Positions 4,549 to 18,422 of a stretch of 40,732 nt of DNA are shown here, in pieces. Source of the stretch: a virus; the UHGV virus genome UHGV-0045958. The stretch is one strand, 5' to 3'. Position 1 is the first letter of the stretch. Every line of letters starts with the position of its first letter. The notes beneath the pieces are model-generated. The model was given only the letters and a program-made list of their open reading frames with translations, was not told where the DNA came from and did no database searches. A program made the position numbers and the translations under genes.

Positions 4549-4606
4549 AAAAAGGGCGGCAGAGCAGTCACGGAGTAAAACTGATACCGCCAAACGTCAC
4601 CAGAAA
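4549..4606 (-). ncRNA. dicF: DicF small RNA (ftsZ-targeting sRNA) with intrinsic terminator
   Basis: Minus-strand sequence 5'-TTTCTGGTGACGTTTGGCGGTATCAGTTTTACTCCGTGACTGCTCTGCCGCCCTTTTT-3' matches the recalled DicF sequence, ends in a GC stem plus U-tract, and lies immediately upstream of dicB. Confidence 0.8.
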
Positions 4607-10559: not shown

Positions 10560-10741
10560 TAGAATGACTGCGGGTGCTTGAGGCTATCTGTCTCAGGCAT
10601 GAACACCAAAAGGCAGATAGAGAAAAGCCCCAGTTAACATTACGCGTCCTGCAAGACGCTTAACATTAATCTGAGGCTCAATCTATGAACGGCAAATCTA
10701 GGTTAGCCTCTTACGTGCCGAAAGGCAAGGAGAAGCAGGCT
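10560..10741. promoter_or_regulatory. hok mRNA leader with in-frame mok-like upstream start (ATG 10685); expected location of an antisense Sok-like RNA
   Basis: Inferred from hok-family type I toxin-antitoxin organisation; the ORF from 10685 extends hok by 19 codons in frame; no Sok sequence was verified. Confidence 0.3.
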
Positions 10742-10897
10742 ATGAAGCAGCAAAAGGCGATGTTAATCGCCCTGATCGTCATCTGTTTAACCGTCATTGT
10801 GACGGCACTGGTAACGAGGAAAGACCTCTGCGAGGTACGAATCCGAACCGGCCAGACGGAGGTCGCTGTCTTCACAGCTTACGAACCTGAGGAGTAA
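10742..10897 (+). CDS. hokD: Hok/Gef-family type I toxin (HokD/RelF-like)
   Basis: 51-aa product MKQQKAMLIALIVICLTVIVTALVTRKDLCEVRIRTGQTEVAVFTAYEPEE matches recalled HokD (RelF); AAGGAG RBS upstream. Confidence 0.8.
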   Translation: MKQQKAMLIALIVICLTVIVTALVTRKDLCEVRIRTGQTEVAVFTAYEPEE

Positions 10898-12403: not shown

Positions 12404-12784
12404 ATGACTGAACGCATAGAATTTGTTTTGCCTTACCCGCCGACGGTGAATACCTACTGGCGACGTCATGGCAATACGTATTTCATCTCGGAGGCCGGAA
12501 AGCGTTATCGCCGTGATGTGGCGCTAATTGTTCGCCAGCAGCGGCTGAAATTAAACCTGTCCGGAAGGCTGGCGATAAAGGTGATTGCAGAGCCACCGGA
12601 TAAGCGTCGTCGCGACCTGGACAATATCCTGAAAGCACCGCTGGATGCGCTGACGCATGCGGGAGTGTTAATGGACGATGAGCAGTTTGATGAAATCAAT
12701 ATCGTTCGTGGTCAGCCAGTATCTGGTGGACGTCTGGGGGTGAAGATTTACCCCATAATGCATGAAGAGCAGGTCAAAAAATGA
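12404..12784 (+). CDS. rusA: RusA Holliday junction resolvase
   Basis: 126 aa with RusA-like motifs (YPPTVNTYWR ... DKRRRDLDNILKAPLDALTHAGVLMDDEQ). Confidence 0.85.
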   Translation: MTERIEFVLPYPPTVNTYWRRHGNTYFISEAGKRYRRDVALIVRQQRLKLNLSGRLAIKVIAEPPDKRRRDLDNILKAPLDALTHAGVLMDDEQFDEINIVRGQPVSGGRLGVKIYPIMHEEQVKK

Positions 12785-13602
12785 AACTGGAAGATTTACC
12801 GAAATACTACTCCCCAAAATCCCCTGGCCTGACCGATGCATCGGCCTCAACGTCAAAAGATGCGCTGAGTATCACTGATGTGATGGCCGCGCAGGGCATG
12901 ACACAGAATCGGGCTGAGATGGGGTTTTCTGCGTTCCTGGGGAAAATGGGCATCAGTATGAATGACAGGGCGCGGGCAACAGAATTACTGGCAGATTATG
13001 CACTCAGTCGGTGCGATCGTGTTGCGGCGTTGAGAAAACTTCCGGCAGAAATAAAACCGTTAGTGATGCGCATTATGGCTTCGTACGCTTTTGAGGATTA
13101 TGCCCGCAGCGCAGCGAGTAAAAAGCAGTGCCCTTGTTGCTATGGGGAAAAATTTATTGAAAGCGTAGTTTTTACAAACAAGGTCCAGTATCCGGATGGT
13201 AAGCCGCCGGTATGGGCAAAGTGTACGAAAGGTGTGTATTCGTCTTACTGGGAAGAATGGAAAAAAGTCAGGGAGGTGGTAAAAGTTGCCTGTCCGGAGT
13301 GTGGCGGAAAGGGTGAGGTTTCCACCGCCTGTAAGGATTGCCGTGGGCGTGGTGTCGCCATTCATCGTGAAGAGTCGGTAAAACGTGGTATGCCTGTTAT
13401 CAGAGACTGCCAGCGTTGTGGTGGTCGTGGCTATGAAAGACTACCATCAACGGAGACATTTAATGCTATATGCGAGGTGACAAACCAGATAACACGCGCG
13501 TCATGGGAAAAAACAGTTAAGAAATTCTATGATGCGCTGGTGACCCGGTTTGATATTGAAGAAGCATGGGCTGAGCGGCAGTTAAAAAAGGTAACTAGGT
13601 AA
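12781..13602 (+). CDS. late-gene antiterminator Q-like protein (QuuQ-type, Cys-rich)
   Basis: 273 aa with several CxxC pairs (CPCCYGEK, CPECGGKGE, CKDCRGRG, CQRCGGRG); immediately upstream of a pR'-like promoter and tR'. Confidence 0.7.
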   Translation: MKLEDLPKYYSPKSPGLTDASASTSKDALSITDVMAAQGMTQNRAEMGFSAFLGKMGISMNDRARATELLADYALSRCDRVAALRKLPAEIKPLVMRIMASYAFEDYARSAASKKQCPCCYGEKFIESVVFTNKVQYPDGKPPVWAKCTKGVYSSYWEEWKKVREVVKVACPECGGKGEVSTACKDCRGRGVAIHREESVKRGMPVIRDCQRCGGRGYERLPSTETFNAICEVTNQITRASWEKTVKKFYDALVTRFDIEEAWAERQLKKVTR

Positions 13603-13607
13603 CAAGG

Positions 13608-13635
13608 TTGATTTTTCCGGAATCTGTGGTAAATT
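13608..13635 (+). promoter_or_regulatory. late promoter pR'-like (TTGATT-N16-TAAATT)
   Basis: -35 TTGATT at 13608-13613 and -10 TAAATT at 13630-13635, directly after the Q stop; resembles lambda pR' (TTGACT/TAAATT). Confidence 0.55.
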
Positions 13636-13684
13636 CGTCATAATAATGGGCTTTTTATGCCTGACGTTAGAAGAGTTTCTACAA

Positions 13685-13706
13685 CCCGCCGCCGAGCGGG
13701 TTTTTT
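13685..13706 (+). terminator. tR'-like intrinsic terminator (end of a short 6S-like late leader RNA)
   Basis: CCCGC-cgccga-GCGGG followed by TTTTTT, about 45 nt downstream of the predicted pR' start. Confidence 0.55.
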
Positions 13707-13745
13707 ATTGCGGAATTAATTACGGACCGTTATTATTCTACTCCC

Positions 13746-13821
13746 GGCCCTTTAGCTCAGTGGTGAGAGCGAGCGACTCATAATCGCCAGGTCGCTGGTT
13801 CAAATCCAGCAAGGGCCACCA
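13746..13821 (+). tRNA. ileZ: tRNA-Ile2 (CAU anticodon; ileX/ileZ-like), possibly tRNA-Met
   Basis: 76-nt cloverleaf GGCCCUU..AGCUCAGUGGUGAGAGC..CUCAUAA..GGUCGCUGGUUCAAAUCCAGCAAGGGCCACCA with encoded CCA; very similar to recalled E. coli ileX. Confidence 0.8.
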
Positions 13822-13919
13822 TCACAAACCGCCATTAGCTTATCAGGAAGAGCAGACGACACGATAACAGGGTTGTTGGTGCGGGGGCGGGTCCCCGATG
13901 GCGGTCCATTATCGGTATT

Positions 13920-13995
13920 CAGCGTTGTTAGCTCAGCCGGGCAGAGCAATTGCCTTCTAAGCAGCTGTGGTTGCACTCCTGTTGTTTCTGGTGGT
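13920..13995 (+). pseudogene. degenerate tRNA-Arg(UCU)-like remnant
   Basis: The 5' half resembles argU (UUAGCUCAG D-arm, anticodon loop CUUCUAA), but the T-arm and 3' acceptor strand do not form. Confidence 0.3.
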
Positions 13996-14163
13996 GATGG
14001 TGGACTTCAGCAGCCGGATAATGTCGGTGCTGTCTGATGGTGTTTTGGTGGCGGGTGTGTGGTTGTTGCTTTCCCGTTGCTGAAAAAGAAAGCATCAGGC
14101 GATTAGCAGGGTATCAGTTACCCGTTGAAATTTTTAAATACCTCACAATTCCACAGCTTGATG

Positions 14164-14364
14164 ATTGTCTGGCTGCCGGAGAATTTGTTAAAAATTACAT
14201 CGCATGGTGAATCCCCCTCAGCGGCGGGGCATCTGGCAAAGTGTATGATCCAGAGAACATGCAAATTCAGTAGACAGGCTGAATTTACCGGGAGGCCCCT
14301 GGCACCATGCGACAGACAGAAATTAGGCTATACTTCAGCCCCTCTCCGGAGGGGCTTTTCTGTG
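14164..14364 (+). repeat. structured terminator-capped element, copy A (candidate sRNA or late-leader element)
   Basis: Shares with copy B a promoter-like 5' block, the gcatggtg/caccatgc long-range complement, a ccgggaggc block and an identical AGCCCCTC-tccg-GAGGGGCT terminator followed by a T-tract. Confidence 0.5.
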
Positions 14365-14632
14365 CAGGATGTGTCACAGTTTCCTGAATTCTGAGTACTG
14401 TCCTGTTACTCAGGGTGCTATATTTTCTGACGTGATGAAAGTCTGCCGGAAGGCGGAACGTATCGGAAATGACCCAGTAGAGAAAACGTTGACTCAGATA
14501 CCGATGCTGAGTTACCGGGAAACCGGCATCACATGACCGCTATCCTTCCAGGCTCGCTCCGGCGGGCCTTTTTACTGCAGAAAACAGTTTTCCCGTAAAA
14601 TGCCACGTTGCTCATAATTCAGGCTGGCGATT

Positions 14633-14830
14633 ATTGTCTGGCCGGCGGGAAGTTTGTTAAAAAATTTCGCATGGTGAATCCCCCTGTGCGGAGGGGTAAT
14701 CAGCGAGTAGGTATATGGGATAATCGCGGATTCAGGTGCTGGTACTGAATTCACCGGGAGGCACCCGGCACCATGCAATGGCACATAGCGCCACTCTCCA
14801 GCCCCTCTCCGGAGGGGCTGTTTATATTGA
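14633..14830 (+). repeat. structured terminator-capped element, copy B
   Basis: Imperfect duplicate of copy A with the same terminal hairpin (14800-14819). Confidence 0.5.
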
Positions 14831-14854
14831 TTTTGTCAGATGTGAGTAAACTCC

Positions 14855-15190
14855 TTATGGACTTTGTTGTTTTAGTCCATAAGGACATATTTGCAGAATG
14901 CAACGGTTATTAAAGCATTCATTCAATACGTTATCTGTATTTGTAGGGCATTCCTGGCTGTTTTTGATTAAATTCCAGAATGTTTTATTGAATGGTACTA
15001 CGTTGTAAATGGTTACAGGTAGCACTTTGTTATTGAGCATGATACCTGTGTGAGTCAGTGTAAATATACTTTCAGGAGGTAAGAAAGCATCCGATTGATA
15101 CCAGATTATTAATTTTACTTTACTCCATATGACTGAAAAAGATATTCCGCATGATGGCTGGATAACTGTATCAATTACAATCCACTTCAT
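14855..15190 (-). CDS. hypothetical protein (AT-rich moron, 111 aa)
   Basis: Reverse-strand ORF in a markedly AT-rich island; AAGGAAG RBS 5 nt upstream of ATG; 11-bp inverted repeat ccttatggact/agtccataagg (14853-14884) at its 3' end. Confidence 0.5.
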
Positions 15191-15450
15191 TTAGCTTCCT
15201 TGTTTATGCCTTGCTGGTGATGTTCTGAAAAGTATAAATGATATTTTTGAATATAAACCATAGAGCAGAATTATTTTTCTGATGTTGTTTATTGTTTATT
15301 TAAATGCAGGGTGGTTTATATCTCGTCTTGTAGTTTATCCATGCATATCTGCTTGATGATCAGGTTTCTATTTAAGGTATGGTTTTGTGTTTTTTCTGTG
15401 TTACATGTCTGGTATTTTAAAGAATTATTTTTCAGATGGTGGAAAGAACC

Positions 15451-15639
15451 ATGGCATTTAAACACTATGATGTTGTCAGGGCGGCGCCGCCGTCAGATCT
15501 TGCGGAAAAGCTGACACATAAACTGAAAGAGGGCTGGCAGCCGTTTGGTAGTCCGGTGGCCATAACCCCTTATACCCTGATGCAGGCGATTGCAGCAGAA
15601 GGTGATGTGGTGGTCAGTGGTGCAACTGAGCCGGAGTGA
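15451..15639 (+). CDS. small hypothetical protein upstream of the holin
   Basis: 62-aa product MAFKHYDVVRAAPPSDLAEKL...; GGAAAG RBS-like sequence 7 nt upstream of ATG 15451; track ORF starts at 15436. Confidence 0.5.
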   Translation: MAFKHYDVVRAAPPSDLAEKLTHKLKEGWQPFGSPVAITPYTLMQAIAAEGDVVVSGATEPE

Positions 15640-17603: not shown

Positions 17604-17897
17604 TTATTGTGAGCAATACACACGCGCTTCCAGTGGAGTATAAATGCCTAAAGTAATAAAACCGAGAAATCCATTTACGAATGTTTGCTGGGTTTCTGTT
17701 TTAACAACATTTTCTGCGCCGCCACAAATTTTGGCTGCATCAACAGTTTTCTCCTGTCCAATTCCCGAAACGAAGAAATGATGGGTGATGGTTTCCTTTG
17801 GTGTTACTGCTGTCGGTTTGTTTCCAACAGTAAACGTCTGTTGAGCACATCCTGTAATAAGCATTGCCAGAGCGGCAGAAAACAACATTTTTTTCAT
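17604..17897 (-). CDS. bor: Bor lipoprotein (serum resistance)
   Basis: MKKMLFSAALAMLITGCAQQTFTV...EARVYCSQ is near-identical to recalled lambda Bor; 97 aa from the internal Met of the track ORF. Confidence 0.85.
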   Translation of the reverse strand: MKKMLFSAALAMLITGCAQQTFTVGNKPTAVTPKETITHHFFVSGIGQEKTVDAAKICGGAENVVKTETQQTFVNGFLGFITLGIYTPLEARVYCSQ

Positions 17898-18422
17898 CTT
17901 ATTATCCTGCATTGTTAAAAACGGCAGAATCCTATGTGACAACAATTAAACGATAGTTAAATGGATTGATGAAAATTAAAACTATATAGGTGGATGCTCA
18001 GCCTATTGGAGGTAGTCAGGATTTGAATGTCAGTCTGTTGTCGGCATTCTGGCAATGCAATTTGGATAAAGCGGGGATTAAAAAGATAGAGGCGAGCCGG
18101 TCAGGTAGAAATGAATCAGGCTCAAAGTGAAGCGGAAAAGGTCTGTGGCACAAGCTGATGCAGCCATAATTACAGCCTGATGATTTGTGGAATGAAACAT
18201 GTTGAACCTCCTTAATTGATGTTATTCGAGTGATGAAGGCATTCTGTCCTTCTATAGTGTCCAGTAAATCAAACAGGAAACTTGTCCAACGTGTTGGACA
18301 AGCCTCTCCATTAGTGAGTTGTATTGATCACAACTCTACAAAGAATTCATTACTGGGTAGATGAAAATAGTTTCACTATGAATGGAGGAGGCTATGTCGG
18401 TGGCTTCTTCATTGGAGTACAT

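Follow-up and report, generated by a model that had tools for sequence, protein, structure and literature searches.

The STnc100 family of small RNAs (sRNAs), listed in Rfam as RF02076 ('Gammaproteobacterial sRNA STnc100'), includes EcOnc05, EcOnc06 and EcOnc27/sRNA103, the forms from enterohaemorrhagic Escherichia coli (EHEC) that have been described experimentally (PMC4104026, PMC12711010). A repeat array at about positions 14164-14830 of the virus genome UHGV-0045958, whose whole stretch of 40,732 nucleotides (nt) is called the window here, contains two members of this family, units A and B, with a third and diverged unit, C, between them. The locus is of a known kind and the family is already catalogued. 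What is added here is the third, diverged unit, the assignment of the block at the 5′ side of the units as most likely a promoter, covariation support for a five-arm domain, the contrast of a linker that varies with a scaffold that stays constant, and a PHROG protein family that is likely to be spurious.

The EcOnc sRNAs come from Hfq crosslinking, with their Northern sizes listed (PMC4104026), and Hfq-crosslinked sRNAs lie at conserved positions downstream of the late promoter pR′ in eight prophages of strain Sakai, typically as convergent pairs (PMC4104026; PMC7873438). Strain EDL933 has 11 STnc100 copies, each with RNA-seq reads, and one of them, STnc100_4, is Northern-positive (PMC5331693). 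EcOnc27/sRNA103 overlaps the STnc100 unit that follows stx2B (PMC12711010), and the record of the Stx2 (Shiga toxin 2) phage F004 annotates STnc100 75 nt after stx2B. STnc_100 has also been detected in outer membrane vesicles (PMC12370729). In EHEC and enteropathogenic E. coli (EPEC), the family is abundant, Hfq-bound, adjacent to stx2 and statistically linked to clinical outcome, and its function is still called unclear in published papers.

PasD1 and PasD2 of EPEC E2348/69, which are homologues of EcOnc13, have been verified by Northern blot and by RIL-seq, in which interacting RNAs are ligated and sequenced (PMC8550237), and PasD and STnc100 are traced back to a shared ancestor in a 2026 preprint. 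The PasD sRNAs share with the units of the window the promoter layout, the 5′ strand of the long-range helix P1 (the 5′ end of PasD lies at GCAUGGUGAAUCC) and a similar domain order, in which the PasD seed UGUGAG, taken from RIL-seq target motifs, sits between P1 and the terminator in the segment corresponding to the linker of the units (PMC8550237). They differ in a reduced 5′ domain with a degenerated hairpin P5, scoring 37.7 bits to RF02076, below its gathering score, and in a longer 3′ part, which carries the seed UGUGAG. The PasD seed region and the probe region CCTTGTGAGTTCTGGCTGCGCATG are not in the window, where the probe target is absent at up to seven mismatches, and none of the three linkers of the window is related to that of PasD.

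An array of three tandem units

Units A and B were recognized in the original prediction as a tandem pair of structured, terminator-capped RNA-like elements, and all the elements that it described are found in place when the sequence is read at 14160-14830. The 8-nt long-range complement consists of GCATGGTG (14202-14209 in unit A, 14669-14676 in unit B) and CACCATGC (14303-14310 and 14769-14776), the identical terminators AGCCCCTC-tccg-GAGGGGCT occupy 14337-14356 and 14800-14819, and the ccgggaggc block is present as the hairpin CCGGG-AGGCA-CCCGG of the RF02076 model. A repeat search finds three blocks, 83-91% identical and 466-469 nt apart, that the two units share, namely a 5′ block (14160-14194 and 14629-14663, 83%), the GCATGGTGAATCCCCC block (90%) and the CTGAATT.ACCGGGAGGC.CC.GGCACCATGC block (91%).

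The original prediction could not place these elements in a named RNA family; the covariance-model search against Rfam assigns both of them to RF02076. In a first Rfam scan of the whole window at gathering thresholds (47 bits for this family), unit A scored 138 bits (14172-14365, E 1.7e-30) and unit B 132.5 bits (14641-14829, E 4.4e-29), about three times the gathering score, and each unit covers model positions 1-206 with few non-canonical pairs relative to the STnc100 consensus structure in the model alignments. Units A and B are members of the STnc100 family, and their likeness, seen as end-to-end matches to one covariance model, is far beyond chance. The outer long-range helix of the RF02076 model is the 8-nt complement, and the 3′ hairpin is the terminator of the model. 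Together with the described forms, units A and B have the long-range helix, the hairpins, the terminator and the lambdoid position, between pR′ and the tRNAs (stx where present) and the lysis genes, and nothing essential is different in them. The EcOnc05 Northern probe, when reverse-complemented, has exactly the sequence of window positions 14698-14732 in unit B, which is the same variant as EcOnc05 of EHEC Sakai, and the EcOnc06 probe matches 14711-14745 with one mismatch.

The difference from the described forms is that three units stand here in tandem, one of them a diverged subtype. A permissive Rfam scan of 13550-15500 matches unit C to RF02076 at 14401-14576 with 30 bits (E 3.5e-4). Because of this match, and because all elements are kept in the middle unit, the array is a triple, with units A, C and B in this order; thus, the repeats of the supposed tandem pair stand, whereas their count does not, the diverged unit C at about 14401-14576 having been passed over. 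Two points weigh against this extension of the array: taken alone, unit C fails the gathering score of RF02076 (30 against 47 bits), and its P1 has one C.A mismatch. The subtype of unit C is also found in other loci, in one of which (L022) P1 is a perfect 8-bp helix.

All three units lie on the plus strand. The RNA of unit A, for which the 5′ end is a predicted one, spans 14202-14362, with P1 at the positions given above, a putative seed linker at 14311-14336 and the terminator at 14337-14356, followed by a U tract. The RNA of unit C spans 14430-14575, in which P1 pairs ACGUGAUG (14430-14437) with CAUCACAU (14527-14534), the linker lies at 14535-14549 and the terminator at 14550-14569 is followed by UUUUU. 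The RNA of unit B spans 14669-14826, with P1 again as given above, the linker at 14777-14798 and the terminator at 14799-14820, followed by a U-rich tail. The hairpins of all three units were recovered by the terminator scan.

Covariation of the 5′ domain and the level of constraint

Homologues were collected by two pattern scans of a viral contig collection, which gave loci L001-L168, and by a sequence-only nhmmer search, which gave 214 domain hits in 167 loci. Ninety-seven distinct 5′ domains, including the three units of the window and PasD1, were aligned with MAFFT (alignment A2). On this alignment, RNAalifold finds 27 pairs in six helices, and 20 of the 27 pairs have double changes. The structure forms a standard pair in 92.0% of the cells, against 40-48% when the partners are slid by 1-3 columns; 324 cells are changed on both sides, against 48-101 when slid, and the covariation score is 0.340, against 0.06-0.11. 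None of 500 shuffles of A2 reaches any of the observed pairing measures. The first ~105 nt of a unit are a junction of five helical arms (six helices as counted by the tool), closed by P1. In the predicted structure of this domain, P1 encloses a hairpin P2, a variable arm P3, a hairpin P4 and the invariant hairpin P5, CCGGG-AGGCA-CCCGG.

Compensatory substitutions in the gcatggtg/caccatgc helix are seen in all seven of the P1 pairs of A2 (eight bases are complementary in units A and B), across the 97 homologues. In the STnc100 consensus, this long-range helix is P1, which closes the structure, and the interpretation of the repeats as discrete structured RNA elements is supported. Compensation in P1 is also seen within the window. 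In the three-unit alignment A1, every helix and element recurs in unit C with a different sequence. Compared with GCAUGGUG/CACCAUGC of units A and B, three of the eight pairs of its P1, ACGUGAUG/CAUCACAU, have both bases replaced, and one is the C.A mismatch; the first hairpin of unit C reads UCUGCC-GGAA-GGCGGA and the last CCGG-GAAA-CCGG, and UUUUU comes after the terminator AGGCUCGC-UCCG-GCGGGCCU. The folds of the single units agree on a multi-helix domain closed by P1, an open linker and a terminator, with z about -3 (unit A, -62.5 kcal/mol, z -3.0; unit B, -69.8 kcal/mol, z -3.0; unit C from 14430, -50.3 kcal/mol, z -2.9, where six of the eight pairs of P1 form).

Some features of these data weigh against the reading of the units as base-pairing sRNA genes that is given below. 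Two blocks were used as search patterns, and their conservation is partly forced by the collection of homologues; the last hairpin, P5, never varies in A2 and was one of these patterns, so its invariance is partly built in. Furthermore, sequence conservation of the 5′ domain exceeds what a passive 5′ structure needs, and base pairing may not be its whole function. A scan of genome contigs with ACCGGGAGGCNCCNGG returned almost only chance matches in high-GC genomes and therefore gives no taxonomic census; the real units in it are only those of Kosakonia L195 and Citrobacter L244, L255 and L230.

It is conceivable, if unlikely, that the conserved 5′ domain is the functional part of the RNA, acting as a protein-binding or structured module (a decoy, a sponge, an RNase shield or a tRNA-like element), and that the linker is no seed. 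Loop and junction nucleotides (GGUGAAUC and the AGGCA loop of P5) are nearly invariant even in very divergent units, while the stems covary, and, as we read the structure, the putative 5′ end is where P1 starts, and a 5-bp hairpin directly follows P1 on the 3′ side, an arrangement like the acceptor/T-arm stack of a tRNA. The invariance of P5 and GUGAAUCCCCCU is, however, inflated by the search patterns, STnc100 is the sole Rfam family that matches the units, ARAGORN calls no tRNA-like gene at the units, and both the RIL-seq chimeras of PasD and its target motif map to the 3′ linker, not to the 5′ domain.

The same covariation bears on the possibility that the repeats encode, or are fragments of, small proteins, which is extremely improbable. 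Open reading frames (ORFs) of 89 amino acids (aa; 14125-14394, plus strand), 55 aa (14369-14536, plus strand) and 70 aa (14572-14784, minus strand) overlap units A, C and B, respectively. The 55-aa ORF matches phrog_23557 from end to end (E 2.2e-45), RefSeq has a pseudo coding sequence (CDS) fragment on the minus strand over unit B, and ribosome footprints occur on some of the EDL933 copies (PMC5331693). The ORFs over units A and B, however, are on opposite strands and are therefore not conserved between the copies, as the original prediction had pointed out, and they have no match in PHROGs or NCBIfam. Homologues that are 85% identical keep only 33 aa of the 55-aa ORF, and the amino-acid differences lie in a hairpin with compensatory RNA changes. 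The covariation pattern points to constraint at the RNA level rather than the protein level, as had been argued from the ORFs, and the protein-coding reading, including that of a decayed protein gene, is rejected because the ORFs of units A and B have no family, the 55-aa ORF is not kept and the RNA covaries.

The phrog_23557 family itself (55 aa, of unknown function), which falls over unit C at 14369-14536 on the plus strand, is likely to be an annotation artefact on an sRNA gene. For annotation, the array is of value in that the NCBI pipeline leaves the three sRNA genes unannotated and places a pseudo-CDS over one of them.

Predicted promoters, linkers and the proposed working of the array

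The block at the 5′ side of units A and B, described as promoter-like in the original prediction, lies upstream of the position that corresponds to the RNA-seq-estimated 5′ end of the homologous sRNA PasD1. PasD1 is listed at NC_011601 1060260-1060432 (173 nt), with a start estimated from RNA-seq (PMC8550237 Table S6). In the EPEC E2348/69 genome, this start is the G of GCATGGTGAATCC, which is also that of GCATGGTG, and upstream of it are TTGACT, 18 nt, TAAAAA and 7 nt. The 5′ blocks of units A and B align with this TTGACT-18-TAAAAA arrangement, and the PasD1 locus (L289 1224-1268) aligns with the 5′ blocks and P1 of the window. The predicted promoter of unit A (14165-14194, plus strand) consists of the -35 hexamer TTGTCT (14165-14170), an 18-nt spacer and the extended -10 element TGt-TAAAAA (14186-14194), and that of unit B (14634-14663, plus strand) consists of TTGTCT (14634-14639), an 18-nt spacer and TGt-TAAAAA (14655-14663); the hexamers are kept between the two units and the spacer differs. 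In unit C, the putative extended -10 element is TGcTATATT (14416-14424, plus strand), at the place that the TTTGTTAAAAA block takes in the alignment with units A and B, and the -35 region is weak.

Among 158 distinct units, the mean score of the best -35/-10 pair in the stretch 4-12 nt upstream of P1 is 7.75 out of 12, where shuffled flanks give 6.59; a score of at least 8 is reached by 107 of the 158, where about 29 are expected, and many divergent units have near-consensus TTGACA/TAnnnT pairs. On the basis of the PasD1 start and this enrichment of upstream pairs, the 5′ block is most likely a sigma-70 promoter, by homology, and transcription most likely starts at or next to the first base of P1. 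If the PasD1 start holds family-wide, positions 1-29 of the RF02076 model would be promoter DNA (spacer and -10) rather than RNA, and the outermost 3-bp helix of the model would be absent from the RNA.

Several observations weigh against this assignment. The TTGTCT and TAAAAA hexamers of units A and B are weak, and a simple consensus scan did not pick them up on the plus strand; in addition, the RF02076 model begins 30 nt upstream of P1. The Northern sizes of ~222 nt for EcOnc05 and ~235/247 nt for EcOnc27 (PMC4104026) exceed the 157-173 nt that a P1 start would give, so that transcription may begin further upstream or the RNA may be processed; only EcOnc06 (~177 nt) and EcOnc13 (~187 nt) are close to the prediction (PMC4104026). 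Northern sizes were dropped as evidence on the 5′ end, because they spread from ~177 to ~247 nt and the probes would cross-hybridise among many genomic copies.

Two further promoter candidates were tried and rejected. In both 5′ blocks, the consensus scan called TTAACA-16-GACAAT on the minus strand, which probably represents the A/T-rich -10 region read backwards and was set aside because nothing is conserved downstream on that strand. TGGCAC in CCCCTGGCACCATGC and CTGGC in the 5′ block were also considered as sigma-54 sites, and the GG-to-GC spacing, judged by eye, misfits the -24/-12 consensus.

A separate observation concerns the variants linked to haemolytic uraemic syndrome at +90 and +103 (PMC12711010). 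When counted from the stx2B stop codon in phage F004, they fall at about positions 2504 and 2517 of its record (L291), in which the counterpart of RF02076 model positions 1-29 is 2489-2517. If the PasD1 start also applies here, this may place them in the extended -10 element and the discriminator rather than in the RNA body.

In 109 of the 158 units, a terminator is found no more than 110 nt from P1; linkers have a median length of 26 nt and predicted RNAs one of 169 nt. Of all segments, the linker shows the lowest conservation, at a mean pairwise identity of 0.44, against 0.79 and 0.85 at the two ends of the 5′ domain, and it contains 14% G. In the window, the three linkers (A, GACAGACAGAAAUUAGGCUAUACUUC; C, GACCGCUAUCCUUCC; B, AAUGGCACAUAGCGCCACUCUCC) are mutually unrelated.

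From these features, the array very probably represents three sRNA genes, each transcribed independently, that lie in the moron site of a lambdoid prophage and whose RNAs depend on Hfq and act in trans. For transcription, Hfq binding and the location of the seed in the linker, this reading draws by analogy on the literature on homologues, and the exact 5′ ends, the promoters, the linkers as seeds and any target are predictions for the three units themselves. Each unit would comprise a sigma-70 promoter, a transcript that starts at P1, the ~105-nt 5′ domain, a single-stranded, G-poor linker of 15-26 nt and a strong intrinsic terminator. In the lysogen, each unit would be transcribed alone and stop at its own terminator to give an RNA of ~145-160 nt, which Hfq would bind at the terminator/U-tail and the linker. 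The linker would then base-pair with trans-encoded mRNAs or sRNAs, and three different linkers would serve three target sets. After induction, Q-modified polymerase coming from pR′ would pass all three terminators into the lysis genes, and the units would thereby also add to the terminator barrier that keeps the late genes Q-dependent. A non-Stx E. coli lineage would gain from this locus as many as three prophage sRNAs whose putative seeds differ. One result weighs against this reading: when targets of the linkers were sought on both strands of the window with RNAduplex, none was better than those of shuffled linkers, self-antisense aside, and therefore no in-cis target can be proposed.

Lambdoid late operons are known to rely on terminators downstream of pR′. 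The array may act mainly in cis, as a stack of three terminators with structured RNAs that insulates the lysis genes from transcription coming from pR′, the tRNA and the moron and makes lysis strictly Q-dependent, the short RNAs being by-products; we regard this as possible, though the evidence leans against it. Three strong terminators are co-oriented with late transcription between pR′ and the holin gene, and across the loci the units are always oriented like Q and the lysis genes. A terminator, however, needs neither a 105-nt domain with 20 covarying pairs nor a promoter of its own, and the homologues bind Hfq and form chimeras with many mRNAs (PMC4104026, PMC8550237). A barrier role is compatible with the sRNA reading as a second function and is probably real, and it is less convincing as the only one.

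Within the reading as sRNA genes, we suggest, tentatively and with considerable doubt, that the STnc100/PasD group is a modular scaffold-plus-seed system, in which a conserved 5′ domain with a function of its own is combined with a variable, G-poor linker that sets the targets. If so, the 5′ domain might bind a specific factor or shield the 5′ end, phages would carry tandem arrays of 2-6 independently promoted copies, and the three unrelated linkers of the window would represent three target specificities on one scaffold. Published work covers this idea only partly, in the common origin of PasD and STnc100 and in their different seeds.

Prophage context and distribution

The RefSeq annotation of an identical locus supplies the gene order. 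Before the units, it runs hokD/sok, DUF968, RusA, Q, the probable pR′/tR′, the tRNA with anticodon CAT, the decayed argN and argO and DUF3927; after them, it runs convergent iraM, DUF1737, holin, DUF1327/YdfR, lysozyme, Rz, iss/bor and terminase. The antiterminator Q, of the lambda-Q family, lies at 12781-13602 on the plus strand (PF03589, E 1.2e-54; 'antitermination protein' in RefSeq). A reading of the sequence and the terminator scan place a promoter-like site (TTGATT-16-TAAATT) and a strong terminator (13683-13702 and a T run) at 13609-13705 on the plus strand, and these are probably pR′ and tR′, judging from their position directly after the Q stop codon. A -10-like CATAAT lies just downstream of the TTGATT-16-TAAATT site. 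The leader RNA between pR′ and tR′ would be ~60 nt long, at the place where Stx phages make the Hfq-binding StxS.

ARAGORN and Rfam find one tRNA gene, with anticodon CAT (ileZ-type), at 13746-13821 on the plus strand, and the tRNA stretch aligns at 85% identity with the ileZ-argN-argO cluster of the Stx2 phage F004. The region syntenic with this stretch and the units in Stx2 phages has the order Q, tRNAs, stx2AB and STnc100, which agrees with the original prediction that the units occupy the position of stx. The segment 13822-13963 (plus strand), which neither ARAGORN nor Rfam calls, contains an argN equivalent that is scrambled in mid-gene and an argO equivalent that ends after the anticodon loop, and these look like two decayed tRNA-Arg genes.

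StxS and the 6S RNA of lambda are, like the units, short terminated transcripts of the lambdoid late region that are made in the lysogen, and StxS binds Hfq (PMC7873438). They differ in starting at pR′ directly downstream of Q and in being a substrate of Q antitermination, whereas the units have their own predicted promoters further downstream, are repeated three times and have a larger and different structure. By analogy with these RNAs, the units could be viewed as relict or alternative late-promoter cassettes (pR′-qut-tR′) of another Q type that were duplicated by recombination, which is very unlikely. The layout of a promoter and a short terminated transcript downstream of Q, the ability of StxS, as a short transcript derived from pR′, to bind Hfq (PMC7873438) and a -10-like GTGAAT, which we read at +6 to +12 of the predicted transcript, would agree with such an origin. 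A separate promoter-terminator pair is, however, already present at 13609-13705 directly after Q, and the units begin at least 560 nt downstream of Q, at 14165 or later, past the tRNA region and DUF3927 rather than in a pR′-tR′ leader. Moreover, arrays of up to 5-6 units occur, Stx2 phages carry a unit downstream of stx2AB and not at pR′, and the constraint falls on RNA pairing, which a Q-binding site in DNA would not produce.

The anti-sRNAs AsxR and AgvB (RF02703, RF02702) occupy the same moron site, usually convergent with STnc100-type units in EHEC prophages (PMC4104026), and differ from the units in their length (51-60 nt), their location on the opposite strand and their unrelated sequence. 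Neither family has a match in the window at its gathering score, nor over 13550-15500 at E up to 1. Sakai Sp4 has ileZ-argN-argO first, then a terminator, an STnc100 unit of 138 bits and, convergent with it, an anti-sRNA, and the convergent terminator of Sp4, AAAAAAGCCCG..., was not found after unit B. Where EHEC prophages have a convergent anti-sRNA of the AsxR/AgvB type, the window instead has a convergent iraM homologue, encoding an anti-adaptor that protects RpoS (NF007393, 162 bits; 14855-15190, minus strand), and such a homologue lies downstream on the opposite strand in 15 loci.

Directly upstream of unit A is a small DUF3927 ORF (PF13064; 13967-14083, plus strand), as is also the case upstream of PasD1 (L289 1062-1220); in 11 loci, DUF3927 homologues lie a median of 74 nt upstream of a unit. 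Other observations concern more distant parts of the prophage. A match to the sok antitoxin RNA (112 bits; 10572-10747, plus strand) adjoins hokD, a match to DicF (76.7 bits; 4554-4605, minus strand) lies in the early region, and a gene for an iss/bor-type lipoprotein (increased serum survival; 17604-17945, minus strand) just after the lysis cassette represents a second late-region moron.

The same context recurs among 165 loci. Wherever homologues of Q, RusA and DUF968 are detectable, they precede the units, and 91-98% of these matches are on the same strand. Downstream, and also on that strand, are homologues of DUF1737, holin, lysozyme and Rz, except that a few of their matches fall between widely spaced units and one lysozyme match is upstream. 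Of the 165 loci, 27 have arrays of 2-5 units, in which the distance is mostly 220-270 nt, and Rfam finds up to six units in one locus. An 801-bp stretch of the window is present at a coverage of at least 80% in 655 of 5,426 complete E. coli genomes, and any match to it is found in 2,862 of them, in up to 12 places per genome; in the phage collection, it matches 354 records, mostly of Stx-converting phages. In two metagenomic viral contigs, isrI (RF01392), a Hfq-binding RNA of Salmonella islands, directly adjoins STnc100 units within arrays (L084 5220-5316 and L063 8665-8763).

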